NCBI GenBank assembly: GCA_027923505.1
Contig: BROI01000002.1
Span: forward strand, 2,604,001 to 2,668,000
Direction: 5' to 3'
Source: Mayamaea pseudoterrestris
Lineage: Eukaryota
DNA length: 64,000 nucleotides
Shown: one piece after another, positions 22,179-64,000 of the stretch
Numbering within the stretch: the first letter of the stretch is position 1
How the letters are laid out: each line of letters begins with the position of its first letter
Program-made: the position numbers and the translations under genes
The notes under the pieces: generated by a model
Database searches by the model: none
What the model was told of the DNA's origin: nothing
Seen by the model: only the letters and a program-made list of their open reading frames with translations

Positions 22179-22748
22179 CTACTTTTGTTTACGTTCGCGG
22201 CAATAAACCTTGCCATCCTCATCTTTTAGTATAATAAAAGCTTTCGCAATCTTCTCAGCATCAGACTTGGTAGAAGTAAGGGTTAGACCAGAAACAATAG
22301 CCTGCATACCCTTTCGTTTCAATGCGGGTCCCGGCCGTCCAGAACGCATGCTATAAGTTGTACTGCATGTCGGACAAGCAAGTCGCGGTAAATCTTCCCA
22401 TGCTTGGTCATCGACAATCAAATCGCCTTTCCATAAATCAAAGGCGCATCGAGGACAATTGCCTTGTAGTGCATAGTACTTGCCGCCGACGTTGCCGCAA
22501 ACCATGCGGACGGATTCACCAAACTCCCAGCCTTTAAGTTGATTCAAAGCTGGTAGAGTCACTCCAGTAATTTCCTGACCAAGGCCTCCTTCCAACTCTT
22601 CCTTCAACTCGTCCGCAAGGCTTCTGGTTCTTTTCTTAGCTCCTTGCTTTGGTGCCATCAATATGAAGTGAAAGGACGATGCACACTGGACGAAAAGCAT
22701 CAAGCCAAAGATGGCGACGAAGCCTCTTTCTGATCTCGCTATTCTCAT
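22179..22748 (-). CDS. Plastid-targeted Rieske-ferredoxin-fold protein with CPRC/CPTC in place of the CxH/CxxH ligands
   Basis: Signal peptide + ASS-F. GNVGGKYYALQGNCPRCAFDLWKG...RLACPTCSTTYSMRSG aligns by eye with the NirD/Rieske ferredoxin pattern. Confidence 0.7.
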   Translation of the reverse strand: MRIARSERGFVAIFGLMLFVQCASSFHFILMAPKQGAKKRTRSLADELKEELEGGLGQEITGVTLPALNQLKGWEFGESVRMVCGNVGGKYYALQGNCPRCAFDLWKGDLIVDDQAWEDLPRLACPTCSTTYSMRSGRPGPALKRKGMQAIVSGLTLTSTKSDAEKIAKAFIILKDEDGKVYCRERKQK

Positions 22749-22913
22749 TGCGTATGTCTTTTATCTAGTGTCTATTGTAGACAATTGCTGATAGCTACCT
22801 ATTTACGCTATATACCACACTAGGACGGGAACAGAATGAGCCAAATCACAAAGTTGAACTTGCTCCGACTCCGATCGAGTGAGGCACAAGGAGTCGCAGC
22901 GGCAAAAGTCTCG

Positions 22914-23092
22914 TGACGTAATTGACACTGGCTCTCGTTTCATATAATTGCCTTGTGACGTAATTGACACTGGCACTCGTTTTGTATTATGACCTTGTGA
23001 CGTAATTGACACTGGCACTCGTTTCATACTATTGCCTTGTGACGTAATTGACACTGGCACTCGTTTCGTACTATTGCCTTATGACGTAATCA
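22914..23092 (+). repeat. 42-bp minisatellite array A (4 full units + 11-bp partial)
   Basis: Units start at 22914, 22956, 22998, 23040 and 23082. Consensus tgacgtaattgacactggcactcgtttcatactattgccttg. Confidence 0.97.
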
Positions 23093-23250
23093 TTCATTAC
23101 GCACTCAGTACACAAATCCGATCGCCCTTTGTACCCTTCGTCAAAACAGTCCTGGCGTCGCTACATAGCTTGCCATCACCTCGGACCTCAGCGCTGTAAA
23201 TGCATGAACAGTTATGCATTGGACTCTGTAACAGATAGCTTATTAGCGGA

Positions 23251-26200
23251 ATGGCAAAAATTTGCAAGAAATCATCCTCCTCCAAGCCCAGCCGGAAGCG
23301 GCCGTCACCCTTTCGCATCAAGGTCGGATCAGTCGTAGCGCTCCGCATGCAATCGACCGGAAATTCAATATCCATCTGTTCCGAAAGAAATTCTACACTA
23401 CAGGCCATTAAGTTTCTCAACTATTCATACGTTTGGGCGGCTCCGGTTCCAGGACGCGATGAAGGACTCGCACTGCTCGGCAAGTGCGTTCGCCTTTTTC
23501 TCCCAAAGAAGGCTGTGCCCGATCCATCACGACGCGTTCTGGAAGGACAAGTCGTTGGAGTTCATCATTTAAAACCAAACAAGATTCATTTGCTCGTTGA
23601 TCAAGCGACAGCCGACGCCTTTCCATTTATAACTAAAGTACCTGAATCACTGTCAGTGTCTGCACCTGACGCAAGCCGCAGCAAGTCGGCGCGGAAGCAT
23701 GCCGCACTCGAGGAGCGAATCAGAGGCGCCAACAAGGTACTACTGCAAATAAAATTGAGTGCTCCTGGGCCGGCATTTAAGATAAAAAGCGATCAAGCAA
23801 AATCGATACAATGGGCCGTCCTCAAACTGGTACCGAACAAGCTATTTCGCGAATCGACTGACTCTGCAGCTGATCCAAGAGCATCTCTTAATAACGACAC
23901 TTCATCAATCACAGCGTCAAAACAGTCTATCTTACATAAACAACTAAAAGCCTCAGTCAAGCATGTCGGTGATGGTCGCGACTCTACCGAGCAGCAGGTA
24001 AATAACTGGAGGTGGCTGACAAGTCGATACCATGACTCTCTCTTTCGTAACGTTTGTTGGACTATTCCACCAATGCCCCTGAATGGTAAAAACGATATGA
24101 CTACTTTATGTTCAAATGACATAACAATTTACTCTCAGATACTGTCGGCTGGATTTATTGGAGTTGTCAAGCAAATCAATGTTGTTGGCGCAAGCACTGG
24201 GTCATTGGCGTCGGTGACAATCGAGCGACTTATACTGCCGCAGCATACAGCGGCAATGACAAAACAAAACGTTCAACTTGTATATAAAGATTATGATCAT
24301 CATAATTTACTACTGCATGTGCCGATTGAGCAATTGGTGGTTATTGCCAACTCATTGGAGCTACAGGCAACAGTCACGATGGAAGATTCACTGCAGTCGT
24401 CACCTCCCGACGACCCACACATGCTCAACCGGATGCTTTGTTCACATGCATATTCCTTGCAACATGATACATATTTTCCTTTCAATATCGAAACTCCGAA
24501 AGAAGCACCAATTAAGCATCCATGCCATCGCTGCCGAAGGGTTTCGAACGATCCCATCGAGTGCAAGTCTTCCATCTGTCCCTTGCTGGGTCCACATGGA
24601 CAATGCACAAGAGCTTGGTGCAATACATGTCTTATGGAACTTGAACAACAAGAAGCCACTAGCGAACGATTTCCCTGCTGTCATTTACGTTGCGACTGCC
24701 ATCGGTGCATGTCATTCCTTGGGTCAACGTTGCAGGATGACCTTTTTGCAGCAGTGGCGGCTGCGAGCAAGAAAAATGCTGTCAAAATACCCAAGCTCAA
24801 CGAAAGCACACTCCTGTTTCCGCTAGCCACTGTAAACACGATTGATAATGTTGATTTTAATCTTCCGCGCTTCTTGCTCGATTCTGTCGATCATCCCATA
24901 CCCAGGGCGCAATCCAGTCGGACCAAGCCGTCGAGTTCAAGGCGAATAATGCGAATCTACGACAAAGCCATTCGCAAGCCAAAAGCTATGAGCAAATCGT
25001 CGAAGAGACAATCTAATGAGAAGCGCAAAGTTCTTATTGTTGAGGACTATACCTGCTTTAAGCCGACGTGCGCGCGGCACGTTGGATTTGATGATGCTTC
25101 TCAACTTTGCAAGCATATAAACCAATCGCAGCTAAATCCCAGTTCTGTTTGTGTTTATTCGGATCGATCTCGGAACATGCGCGAAGTGCTGAAAGAGCAG
25201 CGACGAGAATTTCCTTCCGAAAAGGAGGACAAACCAAATACAGGCAACCGGGCAGCGAGAGCAAATCAACGACGTTTTATGAAAAATGTGTCTCTTCTTG
25301 GTTCAAGCGCTTTAACTGTCGATACTCTTGCAACTCGGGAGCCACAGATTCGGTTCGACCGAAGCAGCATACATGCTTGGGGCGTGTTTGCCGACGAGGA
25401 CATTGCCGCTGAAGAAATGATTATTGAGTACAAAGGCGTACTGATATCCAACACCGTAGCCGAGAAACGAGAGAAGCTGTATGAAGTTGAAAAGATTGGC
25501 AGTGATTATATGTTTCGCATTGACTCCCATAGTGTTTGCGATGCAACTAAGGAGGGCAATGTTGCTCGCTTCATCAACGCAAGCTGCGATCCAAAGTACG
25601 TAGAGGGAGCTACACCATTTGCATTCACCCATCAACCCCTCATCTAACTCACCTTCAATCTGTTTATCGACAGCTGCTACACTAAAATCATCACTATTGA
25701 CGGAACGAAACGCATCGTTATCTATTCAAAGCGAGCTGTCGTGGCAGGCGAGGAGCTTGCGTACGATTACAAATTTCCTTTGGAGTACGATCCGAGCAAA
25801 CGAATCTCATGTCATTGCGGAGCAAAGGATTGCCGTGGCTATATGAACTGGGACAAGAAATTTGTCGTCGTGCCGGATGAAGAAAAACTTGTTGCAGATG
25901 ATGACGGCAACGCGAAAGCGGACCATTGTTTTGACGATATCAGCCCTGCCGACGCTTCGCGACCTGGCGACGACGACAGCGTTTCCGAGATGGCTTCTTT
26001 TGCGTCGGACGGCTGCACTTTTACAGATAAGAACGAGACGAATGGGGCACTTATTAGTGGATCGCCCGTGTCAGCCAGTGTGACCACCATGGCGAGTGAA
26101 AAAGTCGTTGGAGAAGATGGAGTTGAGAGCTACAAGGACAAGGGAAATGCACTTTTGACACCCGTTGAAATCAGCCGCATCAAGCGCACTCAAGACGACT

Positions 26201-26343
26201 CGGAGGAGTTTACCAACAATATGAAGGTAATTTTACCTTCTTTATCTGCGGCGAGTACGCAAAGCAAGGAACTTGCGAACTATGCTCCATCTTGCAAACG
26301 CTTAAAAATGGTTGTGGAAGCGCCAAGGCCAGATCGCGGTTGA
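23251..26343 (+). CDS. SET1/COMPASS-type histone H3K4 methyltransferase; intron 25596-25673 (~1004 aa)
   Basis: n-SET-like RAARANQRR, SET motifs SSIHAWGVFA, IEYKG, GSDYMFRID, GNVARFINASCDPNCY and GEELAYDYKF, post-SET CHCGAKDCRGYMN, and an upstream Cys-rich segment. Confidence 0.88.
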
Positions 26344-26620
26344 TTGGTCCAATTGATAAGAATTCATAGAGCTAGCTATTGACCACCATTTGCAAAAAGG
26401 TAACTGTAGGTTAGATATATATCGTGGGTGGAAACGTATGTTTATTTAACGGAATCAAGTGAAATTCAACTCATCTCCCGCCACTTGTGGAACTTCACGA
26501 CGCAGATCGGGTGATGATTGGTGATTAATGAGCTGTTAACATTGAGTGAAATGGATGCAGACGACATGTAGATTCATAATGCGACATACCACACCCGACT
26601 GGTGTTGCACTTGTTGTCGT

Positions 26621-27103
26621 TTAAATCATGATCACCTGAAGTTTGTCGGTCGACTCCTTGACCAATTTAACGACCTGCTCCACTCGTTCCGCATATTCAG
26701 CGGTTCGCTCAGTCTTCAAAACGAGACTGTTGCGAGTCGCTTGGCTCTTCTTCATGCTCTCCCGCAACTTTCGGCTCGTAACTTGGAGGCGGTCGAAGAA
26801 GGATCCAGTCAGATCCTCGTCGATGCTGTCATCGCTCGAGGAGGTGGACGAAGAACTTGAATAGGCCAAGCCCGGAAGCAAGTCACCATGTTCGTTGTAT
26901 CCCAGTAGATCCAGTGATGGAAGATCACAAAAATCCATGAGAATCTCGTCGGTACTTGAGAAGGATGCGGTTGGTAGGCCTTGGGCGACGTGCATGCCAT
27001 TGTCCTCCGTCATGTCCTCGTCGCACCAGTCGCCAAGCATCATCTCGTCATCATCCGAATGCACCAACTCGTAGAGTTCGTCGTCGATTGCCATGGCTGC
27101 CAT
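26621..27103 (-). CDS. Hypothetical acidic protein with C-terminal coiled coil
   Basis: 160-aa ORF from MAAMAIDDELYE with D/E-rich N-half and helical C-half (RKLRESMKKSQATRNSL). Confidence 0.55.
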   Translation of the reverse strand: MAAMAIDDELYELVHSDDDEMMLGDWCDEDMTEDNGMHVAQGLPTASFSSTDEILMDFCDLPSLDLLGYNEHGDLLPGLAYSSSSSTSSSDDSIDEDLTGSFFDRLQVTSRKLRESMKKSQATRNSLVLKTERTAEYAERVEQVVKLVKESTDKLQVIMI

Positions 27104-27799
27104 TATTGTAGTGGATGAAAGGTGCTTCTGTTTTGCAGATCTCGAGATTGTGGCATGTAGGATTGGACCCGACCAAAAGTCAGATCGGCAAGTCGGTCGA
27201 ACTTTGTTTGCCCGCAAGATTCAACACAGGACTTTGAAAACTTACGCCTTGTGACCATGCCACTACTGATAAACCGAATTGACGTTTCTCGATGGATGAA
27301 TCGGCAGCGTCATTTTGTGGGGTCACGAATACCATTGCCCAATTAGTCATTTCAAATTTCTGCAAACGTGAAACGACGGAGTTTTGCTTGTCCCGTCTAC
27401 CAAATGACCAAAAAGAACAAGCGTCACACAAAGGCCCACGGAGTTTGCGATCGGAGAAAGCAAGGGCCTCTTATGATGCCAGTTTGTCTCCAACTGGTTG
27501 CGAAACAGGTTCGAGCCACTTCTTGCGCTATAGTGCATAAATCGACTCCGCGGGTCTTCGGGTTTACGTTGCAGTTTGAGCTATCCGGAACCGGAGGAAC
27601 CTCAATCCCGAACAGCTGACAGCTATTCGCGCGGATGACTGGATACCGGTAAGCTTGACAGCGCAACTTCAATGGCCACCCTGAAAGCGGGCCTCTTTCT
27701 AGCGGAGACCGGAGGGTGGTTTTGGCTTCCACACAAGTCCATCGTCTCGCAAACAAAATAAGCCGACTCCACTATAACTAACAAGCTTGTACACGTCGT

Positions 27800-28252
27800 A
27801 TGAGTTCGCCTCCCAAGAGTATTCTCAAGCAGGACGACTCGCAAAAGTCATTGTCAAAGCATGTGCAATTTAGTGACCTAACAATCTTCGAATTTCATTC
27901 CATCTTGGGCGATAATCCAGCCGTCTCGGATGGCAGTCCATTGACCCTTGACTGGATGCATGAATCACAGACGACCCTGCCCATCCACATTCATGAGTTT
28001 GCCAAGAAGTCAAGGCCACGTCGCAAGAGAAAGGAGATGCGTCTGAGCTCTGCTGCGCGGGATATGTATTTGCTTTCCGAGGGCTATACATTGGAGCAAC
28101 TGCTTAAAGCCGCTGAAGCTACCAAGCATGCTCAGGAGCAGCGCCGTGCCAGCATGAAGGGCACGAGCTGGGACCGTTTTCGGAAGGCGGTCGACGGATT
28201 TAAGGTGGACGGATTTAAGCTTCAGAAGAAGGTGGCCGGAACTGCCGCTTAA
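27800..28252 (+). CDS. Small protein with SILK and RVxF-type motifs and a GDNPxV motif (possible PP1 regulator)
   Basis: KSILK, KHVQF and ILGDNPAVSDGSPLTLDW in a clean 150-aa ORF. Confidence 0.7.
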   Translation: MSSPPKSILKQDDSQKSLSKHVQFSDLTIFEFHSILGDNPAVSDGSPLTLDWMHESQTTLPIHIHEFAKKSRPRRKRKEMRLSSAARDMYLLSEGYTLEQLLKAAEATKHAQEQRRASMKGTSWDRFRKAVDGFKVDGFKLQKKVAGTAA

Positions 28253-28440
28253 GTGTCGTTGCACTGAACCTTCGCGCATACAATCTTATAATTTCATAAC
28301 CGATAGTCAAGATTATCGCAACGCTAAAGTACCTTTATATACTATTTTGCAGTTGTGGGTTTATGCTGCCTTAACTTGAGGTGATTGCAGCGGATGCTGG
28401 GAGCAGAATCAACGCATGCGATAAGCAGGTAAACCTTCCT

Positions 28441-30360
28441 TTACACTTGATCTTCAGCTTTATCTCCATTTCGAACCACACTGGTATCAACCTGAAAATT
28501 ATGCTGATAGAAATCTTTGCGCTCATTGAAAGCGCTCGCGCGTAGCTGTTCCCTTTGAGCGTTAGCGCGCTCAGCCAACAATGCTTCGGTTGCTTGCACA
28601 AGTATTCTGTATTCGTCGAGGAGCGGTCCAAGATCAATGACTCGCAAATCATCGGGTCGCGCAGTCAAGTATGCGTAGGAACGATTGAATCCAGGAGGCA
28701 GAATCTCATCCAGCCCGACAATATCAGAATGATTCTTTCTCCTGCCAACGTTCATTCTAATATCGATGCATTCGCCGTCAGAGTTGTATGCCTGACCACT
28801 TTCCTGTAATTCGTGCCATCGACGAGCCCATTTCAGATCAACAGTTTCTCCTTGCTCCCTCGCTCGTCGAATTGCAACGGGTGGAATGGGCGCCATGGCG
28901 GGCAAGTGTAAATCACCCATAATGTCCGGAAGTTCAACAACGTTGCTATTCGAAAGACGTTCCTGCATCTTAGCAGCACACAGCGCCATGCCTTGCTTCC
29001 ATTCGGTCGGTGACATATTAAGAGGCTGTTCCAAGTCTAACTCAAGGAGAAATTGGACGGCACCATACAAGTTCGTAAATGCATATCCTGCCTCACCTCG
29101 CAGATACTCTTTTTCAGCAAGCTCTTCCACCAGTTTTAGATTAGACATGATATTTCTTGGTCGAGCTTGGATGACGACGAACACGAATGTTGGCAACACG
29201 TCATCGGCGCTTGGACCTTTGCCATTTCCATCGGCTTGCATTGCGGCGCGAAGAGCGACATTAACGCTGTGGTAGAGTGCCAGAACTTGCTGCAATTTGT
29301 CATACACAGAATAGTACCTGTCAATTGATTGTAACGCTATAATGGATTGCGAAGCATCAACGGATTCAACGTTCGCATCCAAGTGTTTCAACGTTAGAAA
29401 CTGTAAAGTCCCTAACCGGGTCTGAAAGTCCGCTTCAGCTTGCTGTGAACCATGCGACTTATACAAAGCCGCAATTTGGTGGTAGCATTGTCCATAAAAC
29501 AAAGCTTCTAAACAGCGTTTGAGTTGCTTATGGTTTTGCAGCGAAGTCTGCTGCTGCACTTGCGAGAACATCGAAGTGATCGTCGACTTCAGTTGCGACG
29601 GCGCAGTCTCTTTACTCAGATTTAGCAGTCGCAACGTCTTCCGCATGGATTCGACGAGCATACTGCAAGATGGCTCATGCAATGCTTTCCAAAATTGTGA
29701 ATATGCGACCAGATAATCATCGTTTGACGAGGACAGCTCAGTGTCCAATATCTCCTGACCTGTCGGATATATGGCGTTGCTCTCAAGTCCATTGACAACG
29801 CTTTGAATGTGCTTCTGTACGTGTGCATAATCCTGAGTACTGTTGATATGGTATAGATCCTTCAACAATGCAGCAGCAGTTGGGAGCTTGCTGAGAGCGT
29901 AAGTCCGCTCAAGAGCTTGCAACGAACTATCAGTGTAAAGCTCGTCTCTGTCGCTAGTCTCATAAGGCGTAGGAACTAGACCAAGCCATTTCTTTCTTGA
30001 TTCTCTTGCTTCCAGAATTAACTGCTGTTTTCGCTCAGCAGTCACAGCTTTGCTGGAAGCGATTGACTGCGGGTCGTGTACGAGTACATCATCGGCACTA
30101 GCGTTGTGAGCGAGTGGTGTCGAGTCTTGCGCCGACGAGGAACCAGGAGAATCAGTGCTTTTAAGGTGGTTATTTGTAAAAGCCAATGTGATATTACCAG
30201 AATTTGTATCGTTGTCATCAGTGATACTAGTAGTAGAAGGTGTGGGACGAGCGATTGAGGACCCACCGAACGTCGTCGCTGCCTGTGTTCCCTCGTCGTT
30301 CGAAAATACTGTGTCCTCCACCGTTTTGAAGTCGACATTTTCCACCTCTTCCTTTTCCAT
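28441..30360 (-). CDS. VPS9-domain Rab5 guanine nucleotide exchange factor
   Basis: VPS9 signature SADDVLPTFVFVVIQARP..MSNL..GEAGYAFTNLYGAVQFL. First plausible ATG at 30360. Confidence 0.88.
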   Translation of the reverse strand: MEKEEVENVDFKTVEDTVFSNDEGTQAATTFGGSSIARPTPSTTSITDDNDTNSGNITLAFTNNHLKSTDSPGSSSAQDSTPLAHNASADDVLVHDPQSIASSKAVTAERKQQLILEARESRKKWLGLVPTPYETSDRDELYTDSSLQALERTYALSKLPTAAALLKDLYHINSTQDYAHVQKHIQSVVNGLESNAIYPTGQEILDTELSSSNDDYLVAYSQFWKALHEPSCSMLVESMRKTLRLLNLSKETAPSQLKSTITSMFSQVQQQTSLQNHKQLKRCLEALFYGQCYHQIAALYKSHGSQQAEADFQTRLGTLQFLTLKHLDANVESVDASQSIIALQSIDRYYSVYDKLQQVLALYHSVNVALRAAMQADGNGKGPSADDVLPTFVFVVIQARPRNIMSNLKLVEELAEKEYLRGEAGYAFTNLYGAVQFLLELDLEQPLNMSPTEWKQGMALCAAKMQERLSNSNVVELPDIMGDLHLPAMAPIPPVAIRRAREQGETVDLKWARRWHELQESGQAYNSDGECIDIRMNVGRRKNHSDIVGLDEILPPGFNRSYAYLTARPDDLRVIDLGPLLDEYRILVQATEALLAERANAQREQLRASAFNERKDFYQHNFQVDTSVVRNGDKAEDQV

Positions 30361-30813
30361 GTTGAAGACAAGTAACTGCCAATAGTCTACCGGTAGCTCC
30401 CGCAACTTGCGTAATGTTTTGACCGTTCGTTGATCGTGAGTGAGTTCCGTCGTCGTCTCCACTGCCGCTGCGATATGCGTTTCGGTTTCACTCGTGACCT
30501 GACTGTGTTTAGCAGCGCATGCGCCATTGATCGACCAATTCAAACCGTGCTTGGCGGGAGTGATTTCGAACCTTCTCTAGCGACCACTAAACACCATCCC
30601 AACGCACCATTGCTCTATGTAACTCTCCAAATCCCGGAAGTATGGGCGACCCTCACTTCTAAATACACCTTCATGGTTGTATATCGCACATTTCGGCGAC
30701 GCGTGGCTGCTAACGCTCCACAGGTTTTTTGCGAGGAACGCGGTCGGCGGCTCAACAAAATCACAACTTCCACGGTCGCAGTCACCATCACCGCATCAAC
30801 GAGTATCATCATC

Positions 30814-31264
30814 ATGGTTTTTAAGAAGCTTCGTCAAACTCTCAGCCGAAAGAAGGTTGACAAGAAGGCTGCGGATTCCAAGGTTGAATCGGTATGTAGT
30901 AGTTTCATAGCAGCGCTAACTGCAAGATGCAAGTTGTCCCTCTTCTAGCGAAGAATGTTCGCGCGGCTTGTCGACTTTGAACTATGATCATCTATCCTAA
31001 CTCAATCCTTGTAAAATACCACAGCAACCCGAACAGGCACCGCCCAAGGAAGAGGAAAAGGTTGAGGACTCTCCTGCTGATTCGAGAGAGGAAGGAAGCA
31101 AGTCTCCAACACCCGAAGAGCAATCGCAAAGCGCGCCCGTCGCCGAGGACTCTCCGGTCCAGCCAATTGAGGAGGAAGTGCCTGAGTCGACGACTCAAAC
31201 TGAGGATGACAAGGCACAGAAAGAGGCATTAAACTGCTGCGGAGTATCCATCGCGGTGGAGTAA
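30814..31264 (+). CDS. Small two-exon protein (105 aa): basic N-terminus, acidic middle, C-terminal di-Cys; intron 30892-31024
   Basis: MVFKKLRQTLSRKKVDKKAADSKVES|QPEQAPPKEEEKVEDSP...KEALNCCGVSIAVE*. The gtatgt...acag intron joins the exons in frame. Confidence 0.65.
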
Positions 31265-31719
31265 GGGAGCAAGGAACTCATGGTTTTCGGGTCGGTCGGC
31301 AATTGAAAACTGTATTTGGCGATTGATGGGAAGGTGAATCAGCGTTACTCGATGTGGAAGAAGATGACGCGAGGAGCACAACATCAGTCGTTAGTATATG
31401 TTTATCTGAATTGCTTCAACATCTATAAAAATTTGTCGTTTAATAAAATAAATCTACTTGTGGTTTATAAACGCGTAGTCTTTCGCACCTATACTGGTTT
31501 GGGTTGCACGGCTGCGCGATGCGTCTCGACAAGCGATGAACATTATTTGCTCATCTCGCACTTATTTGCAAGGTCACTTTGCCAGAACGCTGAACAATGT
31601 TCGATGAATGCCGGCAACCTATGAGATGCTAACTGCCCATTGGCATAACACCATTTGTGCTAGATTTACTAACTGCTCTTGTTAATTATAGTGCTTGGTT
31701 AGTGCTTGGTTACATTAAG

Positions 31720-32577
31720 GATGTGTACCCCTGATAAAGTGCAACGATACCACTCGTAGCTCGTCTCTTCCATGCCTGCCTGTTGCATGCGAAGTCGTAG
31801 CACGTCTTGGTTGGGCATTTGTCTAATACTTTCCACAAGATATTGGTAAGATGCCCTATTTTTAGCCACTAATTCTCCCAAGGTTGGCAATAGATGGAAT
31901 GAGTAGATGTCATATACTTGTCGCAGTAGTGGATTCGGAATGTTGGGAGTAAACTCGAGACAGAAGAAGTACTCAATTTGCTTCGCGCAAGGCTGCATCC
32001 ATGTCTGTCACGTTGCGAAGTTTAAAAGCAATTGTATAAAGGTCAAAAGAGTCATCAGCAAACTGGTGACATTCCTGTGCATTCCTTGAACAAACTGCAG
32101 CTTTTGACTGTCTTGAATGGCGCTTCCATACTTATCAATCGCGCGGCTTTGTCCAAACGAAGCAATCCTTCTTAATGTCGCAGACTACAATCTGAACATT
32201 TGCAGTTGGATCCTTATCAAGGTTAGTTGCTTGCAGGAATCGAAAGGCAATGTCGCCAGTTCCTCCGGCAACGTCGAGGATTCTGTAGTCGTCATTTTGT
32301 TCTCTGGACCTGAAAAGGACTGCGGCAATATCCTTGAGATGCGTAGCATCTAAAAGATAGTTTTTCCACAGCGATGGATTCCACCTGATATGACATCGTT
32401 CATGAGATCATAATTGTCAGCAACCTTTTCGAAAACGTCGCAAACGCGCTCCTGCTTTTCGTGGATCGGTACTTGCTCAAAACCGAAGTGTGTCGTAGTG
32501 TTGGCCGTCGAGAGGCAGAGATTGACGACGTGTTTGCGCTATACTCTTAAAATGGTTGATCACGCTACTTGCATCAT
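31720..32577 (-). pseudogene. COQ5: COQ5/UbiE C-methyltransferase pseudogene
   Basis: Motifs [59 protein letters not shown] and SYQYLVESIR are spread over different frames. In-frame stops, at least 3 frameshifts, and the KPGG segment is missing. Confidence 0.85.
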
Positions 32578-32684
32578 GGCAGCGGATAAGTTGTGGAGGT
32601 GTGCCAAACTGCAGCGCATGTATGATCGGCTTTGATTTTGATTCGTTCGCCTTCGTTCAATCAGTGCCACATAAGAACTCTTCA

Positions 32685-32863
32685 TGACGTAATTGACACT
32701 GGCATTCGTTTCGTATTATTGCCTTGTGACGTAATTGACACTAGCACTCGTTTCATACTACTGCCTTATGACGTAGTTTTCACTGGCACTCGTTTCATAC
32801 TATTGCCTTACGACGTAATTGACACTGGCACTCGTTTCATACTATTGCCTGGTGGCGTAATCA
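32685..32863 (+). repeat. 42-bp minisatellite array B (4 full units + 11-bp partial), same family as array A
   Basis: Units start at 32685, 32727, 32769, 32811 and 32853. Same consensus as 22914-23092. Confidence 0.97.
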
Positions 32864-32949: not shown

Positions 32950-34494
32950 ATGCCAGCCGATCAGAGTCCCTTACTTGCACCAGAGAATGAGTCTTCGCGA
33001 CCATGGCTGTCGAATGGCCCTTTGATACCGGAAGATTCAAGTTTTTCGCGGCTCATTTCGCAAACAAATCCATCAAGTGCTCTCAACTTTGCTTCTCTTC
33101 GGCAGCCCGCATCGTCCGCAGCGATTGTTGAACCTTCATACTGCGCCATGACTGCGTCTACTTCATTATACACTATATTTGTTGGTTTTCTGCTTGCATC
33201 ATTCGTGACGACGGATGCATGGCAAGAGACCGTCTTGCAAGTCACAGTCGGGTCCTTTAAACCAGCGAACATTGTCCTACAGTCGCGATCACTCGCAACG
33301 CTCCTACAAGACTCGAACAATTTCACAGCAATGCTTATAATGTGGATGTCATATTTTGTGATTCCATTGTTATTCATGGTCGTCATGCCGCTTTGGATGG
33401 TGCATGATTTTTCAAGAACGTGGCTGGCATCTGACGTGCAATCAAGGGCTCGACTGCGCATCGAGCAGCTCGCCAAGGCTGCACTAATAATGATTTGGAT
33501 ACAAGCGGTACAGAATGTTGCACTGACTGGAATAACGATACAAACGTCGACTGGAGAATTGCTGGTACGCAATCGCTCGGGTGCAGGGTGGACAACCTTT
33601 TGCGTTGGCATGAGCTGCTGCCTTGCGGCCCTTTGTGTGCTGCGATATATACAGCACCGGAAAAGTGATGGTTTTGTTGCATGGAACGAGAACTTGCATC
33701 AGTACGCTCCAGTCGCATCACAGGCGCCGACGTCCATGGCTGTGCGATCGCCTCCACCCGAAGCTTTCGTACGTTTTCCATTCCGACATGGAGTAGTGGC
33801 CGATGAAGAGATCAGCATGACTGTTTTGGAGGATACACCATCAACGCCTCGTCACTGCAATCCGAAAATAAGTGATTTGGCGACACCTGAAGTGATGGAC
33901 GAAGTGGAGGTCAGCATGACGAATAGTCCCAAAGTTTCATCCTGGCAACGTGTGTTGGTCTTTCAGCTAGCATTACTTTCGACTATCTTGTGGATACCAA
34001 GTTTGTATATTCCCATCTTTTCGGTGCAATATCATGGACTGGCCTCTGTATTCGTGGTGGAGCCACAAAAGGCATTCTTTCTTTGGAACTTGGCAAGTTT
34101 CCATCAAGAGTTGCCAAGCGATGATCGCTTCTACAATAACATTCTGCTTAACATCGTTGCACTCTCATTTCTCATTACCATACCTTTGAAGTGCACCTGT
34201 TTGAGTATTGTGGCATGGCTTGGCGAGGGAACGTGGAGCACTTCAAGCCGGCGGATTATATACTCTCTGCAGCCTGCGCAAGGGAGTGGCATCGTGCTGC
34301 TGGCGGCCTTGATGATTGGCTTGACGACTTTGAATGTGGGCGACTCGACCCAATTCTGTAGACACTTGTTTATAGAGACGGAATGTTTCAGCGTAACTGG
34401 TCAGGTGGAAGTGGGTGCCTGGCTATACGCCTTGCACACGATTGTCTTGGAGTTGCTTGTGCAATGCACACTGAGATGGAGCTGTGCCAGCTAA
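32950..34494 (+). CDS. Multi-pass membrane protein of unknown function (two hydrophobic blocks separated by a soluble loop)
   Basis: 514-aa ORF with about 8 TM-like segments and an N-terminal QSPLL dileucine-like motif. Confidence 0.7.
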   Translation: MPADQSPLLAPENESSRPWLSNGPLIPEDSSFSRLISQTNPSSALNFASLRQPASSAAIVEPSYCAMTASTSLYTIFVGFLLASFVTTDAWQETVLQVTVGSFKPANIVLQSRSLATLLQDSNNFTAMLIMWMSYFVIPLLFMVVMPLWMVHDFSRTWLASDVQSRARLRIEQLAKAALIMIWIQAVQNVALTGITIQTSTGELLVRNRSGAGWTTFCVGMSCCLAALCVLRYIQHRKSDGFVAWNENLHQYAPVASQAPTSMAVRSPPPEAFVRFPFRHGVVADEEISMTVLEDTPSTPRHCNPKISDLATPEVMDEVEVSMTNSPKVSSWQRVLVFQLALLSTILWIPSLYIPIFSVQYHGLASVFVVEPQKAFFLWNLASFHQELPSDDRFYNNILLNIVALSFLITIPLKCTCLSIVAWLGEGTWSTSSRRIIYSLQPAQGSGIVLLAALMIGLTTLNVGDSTQFCRHLFIETECFSVTGQVEVGAWLYALHTIVLELLVQCTLRWSCAS

Positions 34495-58529: not shown

Positions 58530-61500
58530 GGCCTGCAAACTTCGTGGCCCCAGGCTTGTCCACAGTAGCTGACTGCCACAACCCAGTCCAACAGCCAGAG
58601 AGGTGTCAATTGATAGCTGGCAGTTGACAGGCATAGTTTCATAATGTCAAAAGTGCAATGAATTCATCATTAGCCCATGTAGTCTCCAAGTTCTGTGACA
58701 GGGACTGCCAGAATTTCATGTCCCCAGGCTTGTCCTCAGTATCTGGCTGCCATAACCCAGTCCAACAGCCAGAGAGGGGTCAATTGATAGCTGGCAGTTG
58801 ACAAGCATTGTTTCATCATGTCAAAAGTGCAATGCATTCATCACTAGCCCATGTAGTCTCCTAATCTGTGACAGGGACTGCCAGCATTTCATGTCCCCAG
58901 GCTTGTCCTCAGTAGCTGGCTGCCATAACCCACTCCAACAGCCAGAGAGGTGTCAATTGATAGCTGGCAGTTGACAGGCATTGTTTCATCATGTCAAAAG
59001 TGCAATGCATTCATCACTAGCCCATGTAGTCTCCAAGTTCCATGACAGGGACTGCCAGAATTTCATGTCCCCAGGCTTGTCCTCAGTAGCTGGCCACCAT
59101 AACCCACTCCAACAGCCAGAGACGTGTCAATTGATAGCTGGCAGTTGACAGGCATTGTTTCATGATGTCAAAAATGCAATGCATTCATCAATAGCCCATG
59201 CAGTCTCCAAGTTCTGTGACAGGGACTGCCGGAATTTCATGTCCCCAGGCTTGTCCTCAGTAGCTGGCCGCCATAACCCACTCCAACAGCCAGAGTGGTG
59301 TCAATTGATAGCTGGCAATTGACAGGCATTGTTTTATGATGTCAGTAGTGCAATGCATTCATCAATAGCCCATGTAGTCTCCAAGTTCTGTGACAGGGAC
59401 TGCCAGACATGTCCCCAGGCTTGTCCACAGCAGCTCGCTGCCATAACCCAGTCCAACAGCCAGAGAGGTGTTAATTGTGAGCTGGCAGTTCAAAGGCATC
59501 CTTTGTTGATATCAAAATTGCAATGCATTCATCACTAGCTCATGTAGTCTCCAAGTTCCATGACAGGGACTGCCAGCATTTCATGTCCCCAGGCTTGTCC
59601 TCAGTAGCTGGCCGCCATAACCCACTCCAACAGCCAGAGTGGTATCAATTGATAGCTGGCAGTTGACAGGCATTGTTTCATCATGTCAAAAGTGCAATGC
59701 ATTCATCACTAGCCCATGTAGTCTCCAAGTTCTGTGACAGGGACTGCCAGCATTTCATGTCCCAAGGCTTGTCCACAGTAGCTGGCTGCCATAACCCACT
59801 CCAACAGCCAGAGAGGTGTCAATTGATAGCTGGCAGTTGACAAGCATTGTTTCATGATGTCAAAAGTGCAATGCATTCATCACTAGCCCATGTAGTCTCC
59901 AAGTTCCATGACAGGGACTGCCATCATTTCGTGTCCCAAGGCTTGTCCTCAGTAGCTGGCTGCCATAACCCACTCCAACAGCCAGAGAGGTGTCAATTGA
60001 TAGCTGGCAGTTGACAGGCATTGTTTCATGATGTTAAAAGTGCAATGCATTCATCACTAGCCCATGTAGTCTCCAAGTTCCATGACAGGGACTGCCAGCA
60101 TTTCATGTCCCCAGGCTTGTCCTCAGTAGCTGGCCACCATAACCCACTCCAACAGCCAGAGTTATATCAATTGATAGCTGACAGTTGACAGACATTGTTT
60201 CATCATGTCAAAAGTGCAATGCATTCATCATTAGCCCATGCAGTCTCCAAGTTCTGTGACAGGGACTGCCAGCATTTCATGTCCCAAGGCTTGTCCCCCC
60301 AGTAGCTGGCTGCCATGAACCACTCCAACAGGCAGAGAGGACTGGCATTGAGTACAAGCATTGTCTTCATGATGTCAAAAGTGCAATGCATTCATCACTA
60401 GCCCATGTAGTCTCCAACGACAGGGACTGCCAGCATTTCATGTCCCCAGGCTTGTCCTCGTAGCTGGCCGCCATAACCCACTCCAACAGCCAGAGTGAGT
60501 CAATTGATGCTGGCAGTTGACAGGCATTGTTTCATCATGTCAAAAGTGCAATGCATTCATCACTAGCTCATGTAGTCTCCAAGTTCCATGACAGGGACTG
60601 CCAGCATTTCATGTCCCCAGGCTTGTCCTGTTGGCTGCCCTCCCCACAACTGGTAGCTGGCAGTTGACAGGCATTGTTTCATCATGTCAAAAGTGCAATG
60701 CATTCCTCACTAGCCCATGTAGTCTCCAAGTTCTGTGACAGGGACTGCCAGAATTGCATGTCTCAAGGCTTGTCCCCAGTAGCTGGCTGCCATGAACCAC
60801 TCCAACAGCCAGAGTGGTATCAATTGATAGCTGGCAGTTGACAGGCATTGTTTCATGATGTCAAAAGTGCAATGCATTCATCACTAGCCCATGTAGTCTC
60901 CAAGTTCCATGACAGGGACTGCCAGCATTTCATGTCCCCAGGCTTGTCCTCAGTAGCTGGCTGCCATGACCCACTCCAACAGCCAGAGTGGTGTCAACTG
61001 GTAGCTGGAAGTTGACAGGCATTGTTTCATCATGTCAAAAGTGCAATGCATTCATCACTAGCCCATGTAGTCTCCAAGTTCTGTGACAGGGACTGCCAGC
61101 ATTTCATGTCCCCAGGCTTGTCCTCAGTAGCTGGCTGCCATGACCCACTCCAACAGCCAGAGTGGTGTCAATTGATAGCTGGCAGTTGACAGGCATTGTT
61201 TCATCATGTCAAAAGTGCAATGCATTCATCATTAGCCCATGCAGTCTCCTAGTTCTGTGACAGGGACTGCCAGCATTTCATGTCCCAAGGCTTGTCCCCA
61301 GTAGCTGGCTGCCATAACCCACTCCAACAGCCAGAGAGGTGTCAATTGATAGCTGGCAGTTGACAGGCATTGTTTCATGATGTCAAAAGTGCAATGCATT
61401 CATCACGCCATGTAGTCTCCAAGTTCCATGACAGGGACTGCCAGCATTTCATGTCCCCAGGCTTGTCCTCAGTAGCTGGCTGCCATGACCCACTCCAACA

Positions 61501-61541
61501 GCCAGAGTGGTATCAATTGATAGCTGGCAGTTGACAGGCAT
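58530..61541. repeat. 174-bp tandem satellite, block 1 (~17 monomers)
   Basis: caggcttgtc recurs at 58551, 58725, 58898, 59072 and 59246 (period 173-174). Monomers are highly similar. Confidence 0.98.
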
Positions 61542-62470
61542 TCCTCATCTTTTGCGGTGACGGCGACGAAACAACATTGGTATCGGTGCACACGCTACCC
61601 AAGCCACTCCCGGCGAGTTTTCAACGTGTTTCACGGAGTCGAACATGAATCTCGACCGGATGTCGGACAGCAGAAGATGCCGTCACTTTGGCCATACCAG
61701 CAAGCCAACGAATACGTCGATCTGGTGGCTGTCGGAGATCATATAGAACAAGAAAGGATAGACTGTTGAATGTCTTTATGGATTTCGCAAGAGTTGTTTG
61801 CCACAAGTTAAAAGGTGCTGGGTACTGGAGCCGATTTCATGACCCTTGCAGTGGTTTGCTGTATACCTTGTTCACTCCAAGGTTTACTCCGGAGGTTGAT
61901 GGAATGGAATGCTGCCTCGGCTACAAGAGTTACAATGCTGGGTTTTACTAGATTCTTACGCATCCTCGGTGGGAAGCAGTGTATCCGGCGACAATATTTG
62001 CTATGCGGCGTGGTCATTAAAAATTATTACGAGAACATCCACTAGATACTAAAGTAGCTTTGGCGATACATATAATAAGTAGGTGATATTACTTGCCATT
62101 TGAAAACAACTTTGGTCATGATTGACAAACTCGTCAAAGTGACATGAGTCCCGCCTGGACCACGCAGATATTGATCAGCTCTCCAGCCGCTGACCGATCA
62201 TGGCATATGAATCCTGTTGGAGACTGCGAGGTCATGCATTCATCACTAGCCCATGTAGTCTCCAAGTGGCCTCTCTGTGACAGGGACTGCCAGCATTTCA
62301 TGTCCCCAGGCTTGTCCTCAGTAGTGGCTGCCATGACCCACTCGACAACAGCCAAGTGGGAATTGCAGCTGGTACATCAGTTTGCCGAGGCAAGACTTCT
62401 TTCTTTCATCATGTCAAAAGTTCAAATGTGTCCTGACCCGACTGCAGCTTGTCTAAAGCGCTTGTCCTCC
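61542..62470 (+). pseudogene. Indel-ridden copy of 57316-~58365 (MMADHC + centrin) embedded in and partly blended with the satellite; pseudogene or assembly artefact
   Basis: 61542-62057 matches 57316-57850 with many 1-2 bp indels. 62100-62232 matches the centrin 3' end. 62357-62470 mixes centrin and satellite words. Confidence 0.8.
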
Positions 62471-64000
62471 AGTGACTGGCTCCTCTCCAACAGGCAGAGA
62501 GGTGTCAATTGATAGCTGGCAGTTGACAGACATTGTTTCATGATGTCAGAAGTGCAATGCATTCCTCACTAGCCCATGTAGTCTCCAAGTTCTGTGACAG
62601 GGACTGCCAGAATTGCATGTCTCAAGGCTTGTCCCCAGTAGCTGGCTGCCATGAACCACTCCAACAGGCAGAGAGGTGTCAATTGATAGCTGGCAGTTGA
62701 CAGGCATTGTTTCATGATGTCAAAAGTGCAATGCATTCATCACTAGCCCATGTAGTCTCCAAGTTCTGTGACAGGGACTGCCAGCATTTCATGTCCCCAG
62801 GCTTGTCCTCAGTAGCTGGCTGCCATGACCCACTCCAACAGCCAGAGTGGTGTCAACTGGTAGCTGGCAGTTGACAGGCATTGTTTCATCATGTCAAAAG
62901 TGCAATGCATTCATCACTAGCCCATGTAGTCTCCAAGTTCTGTGACAGGGACTGCCAGAATTGCATGTCTCCAGGCTTGTCCACAGTAGCTGACTGCCAT
63001 AAACCACTCCAACAGCCAGAGAGGTGTCAATTGACAGCTGACAGTTGACAAGCATTGTTTCATGATATTACAAGTGCAATGCATTCATCACTAGCCCATG
63101 TAGTCTCCAAGTTCTGTGACAGGGACTGCCAGCATTTCATGTCCCCAGGCTTGTCCTCAGTAGCTGGCTGCCATAACCCACTCCAACAGCCAGAGTTATA
63201 TCAATTGATAGCTGGCAGTTGACAGACATTGTTTCATGATGTCAGAAGTGCAATGCATTCATCAATAGCCCATGCAGTCTCCAAGTTCTGTGACAGGGAC
63301 TGCCAGCATTTCATGTCCCAAGGCTTGTCCCCAGTAGCTGGCTGCCATGAACCACTCCAACAGCCAGAGAGGTGTCAATTGATAGCTGGCAGTTGCCAGG
63401 CATTGAACTGTGATGTTAAAAGTGCAATGCATTCATCACTAGCTCATGTATTCTCCAAGTTCCATGACAGGGACTGCCAGCATTTCATGTCCCCAGGCTT
63501 GTCCTCAGTAGCTGGCCGCCATAACCCACTCCAACAGCCAGAGTGGTGTCAATTGATAGCTGGCAGTTGACAGGCATTGTTTCATCATGTCAAAAGTGCA
63601 ATGCATTCATCACTAGCCCATGTAGTCTCCAAGTTCCATGACAGGGACTGCCAGCATTTCATGTCCCCAGGCTTGTCCTCAGTAGCTGGCCGCCATAACC
63701 CACTCCAACAGCCAGAGAGGTGTCAATTGATAGCTGGCAGTTGACAGGCATTGTTTCATGATGTCAAAAATGCAATGCATTCATCAATAGCCCATGCAGT
63801 CGCCAAGTTCTGTGACAGGGACTGCCTGAATTTCATGTCCCCAGACTTGTCCGTCCTCAGTAGCTGGCCGCCATAACCCACTCCAACAGCCAGAGTGGTG
63901 TCAATTGATAGCTGGCAGTTGGCAGGCATTGTTTCATCATGTCAAAAGTGCAATGCATTCATCACTAGCCCATATAGTCTCCAAGTTCCATGACAGGGAC
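62471..64000. repeat. 174-bp tandem satellite, block 2 (~9 monomers, runs off the window)
   Basis: Same monomer as block 1, continuing to the last base. Confidence 0.98.

Follow-up and report, generated by a model that had tools for sequence, protein, structure and literature searches.

What are two short, closely similar arrays of a 42-bp repeat doing in two unrelated intergenic regions of a diatom genome? The arrays lie in a 64,000-bp stretch of Mayamaea pseudoterrestris DNA, referred to here as the window (GenBank assembly GCA_027923505.1, contig BROI01000002.1, here C2, positions 2604001-2668000). Array A (22914..23092, + strand) consists of four A-type 42-bp units and an 11-bp tail and has TGACG at both ends. 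Array B (32685..32863, + strand) consists of four 42-bp units, of types A, A, B and A, and also has an 11-bp tail. An earlier note on the window took the two for copies of a dispersed, fixed-length, nucleosome-sized cassette that delivers helically phased TGACGT sites for basic leucine zipper (bZIP) proteins to bidirectional promoters. A search of the whole 30.6-Mb assembly (41 contigs) indicates that they belong to a real, apparently undescribed dispersed minisatellite, similar in kind to the euchromatic satellites of Tribolium and Drosophila. The explanation that we favor, with about as much doubt as confidence, is that the repeat is restricted to this lineage and spreads by itself, and that it inserts into accessible promoter DNA, swaps units from array to array and is under constraint from a protein that binds it.

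A dispersed family of arrays

Arrays A and B have the same orientation, their starts are 9771 bp apart, and in register they are identical at 158 of 179 positions, while their flanks cannot be aligned; thus, the earlier description of the pair was accurate. Their Tandem Repeats Finder (TRF) scores are 286 and 265. No third copy of the unit occurs in the 64-kb window at 12 or fewer mismatches. Outside the window, the exact cores of the two unit types have 336 and 418 matches genome-wide and the reversed controls have none. From these matches and others, 175 sites were compiled and 179 arrays delimited, four of the sites being head-to-head pairs. The mapped arrays contain 858 of the 931 matches to a loose core pattern in the genome, and so about 8% of the units are unmapped. 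Three further arrays were found after the mapping, and the family size is about 190-200 arrays. The mapped family totals 52.7 kb, or 0.17% of the genome. Arrays with shared flanks were merged into 151 independent arrays, which are the basis of the statistics unless stated otherwise. The dispersal that the note predicted is therefore real: head-to-tail units of one family form 179 arrays on 30 contigs and in 151 flank groups, they vary in number, and they are exchanged between arrays, as in a dispersed satellite.

Most units also begin as predicted. In arrays A and B, 8 of the 10 unit starts read TGACGT, and among 901 clean units (of 966 in all) TGACGT opens 505 and TGACGC 255, which together make 760 (84%).

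The fixed length did not hold up. The number of units per array ranges from 1.3 to 24.5 among the 179 arrays, the largest array reaches about 1 kb, and only 20 of the 179 have lengths of 170-190 bp. Variable length, variable order of the A and B unit types from array to array and changes in unit number between paralogous arrays rule out a fixed 179-bp cassette and, with it, an identical architecture. The four-unit, TGACG-to-TGACG form of arrays A and B is found in seven of the 151 independent arrays, so that their likeness is a modest coincidence. Nor are they sister copies: they rank 13 and 5 of 146 in each other's lists of relatives.

The proposal of a nucleosome-sized element survives in part, as the lengths gather near 200 and 360 bp rather than at one constant size. 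For example, 47 of the 151 arrays measure 166-228 bp, 18 measure 250-312 bp, 43 measure 334-396 bp and nine are shorter than 166 bp. A mixture fitted to the arrays of 100-700 bp is bimodal, with log-normal components at 199 and 364 bp (Bayesian information criterion 113.7 versus 121.4 for one component), and none of 200 bootstraps attained the observed ratio. The nucleosome repeat is 170-200 bp, and the two length modes would, by analogy, resemble one and two such repeats. The 10.5-bp harmonic of A/T dinucleotides in the unit, a sign of nucleosome positioning, is weak. Of 950 junctions between neighboring units, 773 have a spacing of 42 bp and 93 a spacing of 43 bp; the strict helical phasing that was expected from a 42-bp unit is thus broken at 177 junctions. 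A structured non-coding RNA was also considered and rejected: the array unit has no Rfam match at E values up to 1, and its folds are weak (monomer z of -0.06 to -1.67, one dimer strand -2.76).

Placement at the 5' ends of genes

Coding segments were called by a dicodon model trained on long open reading frames (ORFs), which is not an annotation; Pfam matches in 112 of the 227 flanking segments support the calls. At the strict threshold, 96 of the 151 arrays lie between divergent genes, 35 between tandem genes and one between convergent genes; 19 are not callable and none is in coding DNA. The non-coding bases of a small control set (20 stretches of 8 kb and the window) are 25% divergent, 61% tandem and 14% convergent. 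Thus, the claim that the arrays lie in bidirectional promoters extends to 96 of the 132 callable arrays. The bias is stable over four score thresholds (59-73% divergent); the lowest exon threshold miscalls array A through a false exon, and array B is not callable at the strict one. The earlier note had proposed a genome-wide tabulation to tell a cassette from an ordinary minisatellite, and the answer is a divided one: the location at gene 5' ends is not random, and the unit number is variable.

Arrays in tandem gaps are closer to the 5' gene end (314 versus 892 bp). In divergent gaps, the arrays are mostly midway, at median distances of 149 and 174 bp from the two flanking ATGs, and the gap without its array measures 466 bp, compared to 505 bp for the 31 gaps used as controls (p 0.75). 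Therefore, the arrays appear to have been added to bidirectional promoters that are otherwise normal. Native TGACGT occurs 18 times in 15.1 kb of control divergent gaps, which is 2.2-fold richer than in coding DNA, and it is lower in the array flanks. Insertion at native TGACGY sites would explain part of the divergent bias but not all of it, as the bias exceeds this null with p 6e-6 at the strict threshold and 0.049 at a looser one.

The genes next to the arrays are functionally mixed, with no common theme among the 112 that are annotated. Light- or carbon-related genes make up five of the 112, compared to none of 42 controls (p 0.32; Pfam matches sorted by hand from at most the first 300 codons), and no carbonic anhydrase is among the 112. 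RNA-related genes, also sorted by hand, are 25 of the 112 versus 6-8 of the 42 controls. The suggested bZIP regulon for light or CO2 is consequently not supported by gene content, while binding of a bZIP protein is plausible.

These observations bear directly on the strongest of the other explanations, which is that the arrays are a promoter module co-opted by the host. They would be multi-site docking platforms, with a bZIP protein at TGACGT/TGACGC and a second factor at the core of the unit, that drive or tune the genes on either side, with selection on the host maintaining them. The divergent bias above the insertion null and the short distances to the two ATGs agree with such a module. So do the hexamers in 760 of the 901 units, as TGACGT and TGACGC are both among the CO2/cAMP-responsive elements (CCREs) listed for Phaeodactylum in the pertinent part of PMC7378808. 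Duplicated promoters retain their arrays, and only nine of the 151 arrays are shorter than 166 bp, even though paralogs change their unit number. However, a module selected by the host fits poorly with flanking genes that have no functional theme, with host gaps of normal length without the array, whose native promoters seem intact, with array-free stretches of megabase size, and with the failure to find a homolog beyond this genome and its near relatives. We consider co-option possible, but on balance unlikely.

Unit sequence and exchange between arrays

Positions in the unit are numbered from the first base of the third unit of array A (22998..23039, + strand). Among the 901 clean units, variation is 1% or less at positions 10, 13, 14, 19, 25, 26 and 27 and 1.3% at positions 16, 20 and 24, whereas the TGACG bases vary by 2-5%. 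Hence, the hexamer of the cAMP-responsive or aureochrome type, on which the earlier note had centered, is present in most units but is not the key conserved feature; positions 10, 13, 14, 19 and 24-27 vary less. Positions 29, 32, 41 and 42 are saturated, with all four bases found at 32, 41 and 42. The contrast between conserved and variable positions persists after the units that match the search cores are removed.

Adjacent units differ at 5.3 of 42 positions, nearly as many as units from different arrays (6.1 of 42), and adjacent pairs of identical sequence are rare (1.8%). The arrays are therefore mosaics and not fresh local expansions. In ten paralog pairs, units have been exchanged, and gained or lost, at a higher pace than the flanks have mutated: their arrays differ at 163 of 2672 sites (6.1%) and their flanks at 87 of 2711 (3.2%), and within the arrays the junction bases differ at 30 of 119 sites (25%) compared to 5 of 648 (0.8%) for the ten-position core. 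The unit number has often changed between paralogs, and shared variants have been swapped. To judge from these comparisons, fast unit exchange together with a constrained core fits best.

Could the repeat be a neutral minisatellite, one that inserts anywhere and survives where it does no harm, such as the middle of a divergent gap? The conserved positions would then be due to a few old haplotypes that have spread recently, together with CpG decay. New mutations can be removed by conversion in the absence of selection, the genome is compact enough to offer few harmless sites (the coding fraction is about 0.5-0.9 in most controls), and the common junction alleles TG, CA and TA fit the decay of an ancestral CG. 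However, about 30% of the junction alleles are of transversion types, while the neighboring core bases vary by less than 1%. The CpG at positions 23-24 decays in a one-sided manner (136 C>T versus 6 G>A of 901), and the heterogeneity among positions is still there without the units that match the search cores. In addition, plentiful convergent and tandem non-coding space is under-used. Neutrality throughout is in our judgment decidedly doubtful.

Array borders and signs of insertion

The arrays have a preferred beginning. A total of 81 of the 151 start within a few bases of TGACG, compared to 14.5% in 400 simulated random-phase arrays; the ends favor positions 5-14 more weakly (63 of 151 versus 30%). 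Some arrays also have a head motif, in which GGC lies eleven bases ahead of the first TGACG and which resembles the inverted 3' end of the unit. This motif precedes 19 of 78 phased arrays and is upstream of 16 of the 151 independent arrays, versus a background of 0.5%. Genome-wide, the head pattern has 19 matches and its control one; 18 of the 19 are at arrays and one is alone, and a pattern with the spacer one base shorter has no match in the genome. The array ends mostly extend beyond the arm that matches the head. Sequence likeness between head and unit end suggests descent from a small inverted-repeat element.

A few loci have unusual borders. The solo head motif (L212, C21:206509) is followed by TGACGTAA, has no units and is close to an ATG; short stretches at this locus resemble, in swapped order, both flanks of the arrays L111 and L154. 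Possible readings of L212 are a collapsed array, an empty site and a circle junction. L002 and L028 have a head-like segment of 36-37 bases within the array, as if two elements were joined in tandem. Two arrays of opposite orientation stand 0-30 bases apart at L017, L057 and L139 (divergent) and at L136 (convergent).

An inverted head at the 5' border recalls non-autonomous transposons, either of the rolling-circle type (Helentron/HINE-like) or similar to miniature inverted-repeat transposable elements (MITEs), in which the array would be the central repeats and an element encoded elsewhere would move it. Short 4- to 9-mers shared by both flanks are no commoner than in 200 shuffles. The lack of a target-site duplication speaks against a MITE, but it agrees with HINEs as these are described in parts of PMC4067079 and PMC7492417. 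Some copies carry short shared flanks, and the genome has four Helitron-like Rep matches with open frames of 790-2373 codons (C5:431186, C25:90197, C12:211543 and C8:402308). None of the four Rep loci is near a mapped array, though, and most arrays are without a left or right conserved box. The sequence logo downstream of 76 arrays flattens out after about ten bases, with no shared 3' module or palindrome, which does not fit a HINE with its conserved right module. The upstream logo of 78 arrays has no T run and thus no clear T-rich target, with the true element ends being undefined. We regard a transposon of either type as improbable.

Distribution along the contigs

The arrays are clustered. 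Their median nearest-neighbor distance is 23 kb versus 46 kb (15 contigs), and 179 of 268 bins of 100 kb are without an array versus 144 expected (p 1e-15; 32 contigs of known length, duplicates included, with the nine contigs without mapped arrays omitted). The first 2.24 Mb of C1 and the first 1.02 Mb of C2 have no units even with the loose pattern, in a listing that is complete for both contigs. Neighboring arrays less than 30 kb apart are slightly more alike (46 pairs, p 6e-4), which fits local hopping. That the arrays mark chromosome domains of a few hundred kb (for pairing, anchoring or proximity to a centromere), with promoters being merely accessible, is very hard to credit, as the strong clustering, the unit-free stretches and the similar GC of array-rich and array-free samples (0.489 and 0.495) are offset by three clusters on C2 and none on several contigs, by the absence of strand polarity (50 of 84 neighbors on the same strand), by local hopping as an explanation of the clusters, and by contig ends that could not be tied to telomeres (a telomere repeat pattern had no matches, and 12 contig ends had no telomere by eye).

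Some arrays have been copied to unrelated sites, with short flanks or with the downstream promoter and gene start. Four pairs (L036/L097, L110/L153, L019/L163 and L020/L120) have the array, the downstream promoter and the coding start duplicated on another contig; one pair has a common signal-peptide-like start and diverges after it. Donation of promoters and targeting signals by copied arrays is possible. Neighboring duplicates at L064, L071/L072, L084-L086, L114/L115 and L178 are 99.9-100% identical over kilobases and are very recent tandem duplications or assembly duplicates. One stretch inside an array-rich region (L209, C27:195001-203000) has nearly no called coding DNA and a CpG observed/expected ratio of 0.32; it is likely to be methylated repeat DNA.

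Outside this assembly, the exact unit pattern had no match in two scans of metagenome contigs. We found no published description of the 42-bp repeat in the literature, and a term search of the main text of PMC9724779, exclusive of its supplements, found no mention of tandem repeats, satellites, TGACG, promoters or motifs.

A possible mechanism and its weak points

The history of a self-spreading repeat under protein constraint might have been as follows. The unit would descend from a small inverted-repeat element whose body and right arm became tandemly duplicated. Circle re-integration or template-switch repair would then copy blocks of 4-5 or 8-9 units into promoter DNA that is open and poor in nucleosomes, in many cases at a TGACG microhomology and in many cases a short way along the same contig. 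Afterwards, the units would be reshuffled as arrays convert one another. A sequence-specific DNA-binding protein would constrain the unit through core contacts at positions 10-27, possibly with a bZIP protein at TGACGY as well, and its binding would be required either if arrays are to spread or if a promoter is to tolerate them. Benefits for regulation, if any, would presumably be secondary and gene-by-gene, with no regulon.

Several results weigh against this history. The start and end phases of the arrays are independent (p 0.51), a result that is not expected if circles simply integrate at TGACG; integration of a circle at one TGACG was rejected for this reason. The idea that the long arrays are dimers of a 4-5-unit module also had to be given up, as there is no drop in distance at a lag of 4-5 units. 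Only about one array in ten has a clear head, and the exact inverted match of the head is 14 and 11 bases long in two cases and 4-7 bases in 19 of 21. The data used to select the core set contain one member of every paralog pair, and an equally low rate would result if conversion drew on an invariant pool; because of this, the constraint on the core is inferred and not measured. No empty orthologous site was seen in the X1 and X2 contigs, which come from two studies (X1 is possibly the assembly's own source): the borders of array A are present in both and the right border of array B in X2, so that insertion has not been caught in the act. Finally, neither a binding protein nor a mobilizing enzyme has been identified for the family.

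A bolder version of this explanation, which we think rather unlikely, would make the repeat a self-propagating promoter element. One protein complex per 42-bp unit would assemble on the invariant core, the arrays would be held at about one or two nucleosome lengths in bidirectional promoters, and contacts between promoters, mediated by protein, would spread the arrays to their neighbors and tie about 190 promoters into chromosomal hubs. If this were true, a minisatellite would have become a general promoter platform new to one diatom lineage.

Diatom promoters and repeats are poorly charted, and a repeat at about 300 gene starts, hardly ever at gene ends, offers a case of a selfish repeat that enters, and maybe rewires, promoters. 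The paralog pairs and the arrays of differing length are natural controls. If the arrays are inert, a strong rule of insertion or retention is still evident; if they are active, they would offer a bidirectional promoter part that is portable and an approach to a diatom DNA-binding factor.

Genes and other features in the window

Array A had been placed between a Rieske-like gene and SET1. The rightward gene (23251..26343, + strand, two coding exons) does have a SET domain, and its ATG is 159 bp from the array; positions 25596-25673 are skipped in one contig of run X4. The leftward gene (22179..22748, - strand) has its ATG 166 bp from the array, but its Rieske-like match (E 0.005) falls below the Pfam cut-off. 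The contigs of X4 and X5 break off at 22775 and 22827, with one beginning at 23156; contigs cannot show transcript starts, and both runs are from one study, with their kind unrecorded.

Array B had been placed between a COQ5 pseudogene and a membrane-protein gene. On its left, a ubiE/COQ5 methyltransferase gene (31699..32487, - strand) is present in three reading-frame pieces, oriented away from the array, with its start codon not fixed. The label of pseudogene is doubtful, because the X1 and X2 contigs read one base more at 32165 (at full depth) and again at 32083 (at part depth). The frame breaks at these two positions are absent or partial in the X1, X2 and X5 contigs; an intact gene is possible, in which case the breaks would be errors of assembly or confined to one haplotype. 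The rightward ORF of 524 codons (32950..34494, + strand) has no Pfam family, and its first ATG is 87 bp from the array.

The window also has a 174-bp satellite, unrelated to the 42-bp unit, in three blocks that are about 89-94% alike (58541-64000) and run past the window end. Contigs C4 and C20 open with a common tandem repeat (L185 and L190) that is distinct from this satellite. At L206 (C23:240001-248000), three adjacent segments have bacterial-like globin domains.

Comparison with known systems

How does the 42-bp repeat compare to systems that have been described? The aureo box of Phaeodactylum is TGACGT (PMC4937327, in part), and this hexamer or TGACGC opens 84% of the units here, as in CCRE1-3. 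However, the aureo box and CCRE sites, as presented in the portions of PMC4937327 and PMC7378808 that concern them, are a few short motifs in single light or CO2 gene promoters and not a repeat family, and other bases of the 42-bp unit are better conserved than the hexamers here.

HINE/DINE-1 elements have central tandem repeats and share with this family short arrays, no target-site duplication and an inverted motif near the 5' end (PMC4067079 and PMC7492417, both in part). No conserved right module, 3' palindrome or T-rich target like those of HINEs was found here, and the repeat has no partner element shown. A model for the co-option explanation is provided by the m1m2 promoters derived from the CERP2/CELE2 MITEs of Caenorhabditis, a repeat-derived motif set at hundreds of promoters. 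For these, the relevant passages of PMC9757741 report HIM-17 binding, reporter function, a shared tissue programme and most copies outside promoters; here, nearly all callable copies are at gene 5' ends and their targets are mixed.

Like the X-linked 1.688 and Rsp-like clusters of Drosophila, the repeat forms short clusters at many loci, and junction microhomology, interlocus conversion and extrachromosomal circular DNA (eccDNA) are candidate routes of spread (excerpts of PMC7403614). The Drosophila clusters are on the X and in some species tied to large heterochromatic blocks, while the arrays here, the longest about 1 kb, are on 30 contigs. The euchromatic satellites Cast1-Cast9 of Tribolium castaneum, for which spread via eccDNA, transposition or conversion was proposed, likewise form tandem arrays dispersed in gene-rich DNA, with exchange within and between chromosomes (PMC11610590, in part). 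The diatom repeat is unlike them in its 42-bp unit, short arrays and concentration in divergent gaps; no promoter orientation bias is noted for Cast1-Cast9 in that part of PMC11610590. In conclusion, the diatom repeat is set apart from known euchromatic satellites by its near-exclusive placement at gene 5' ends, its phased start, its two length modes and its footprint-like core.

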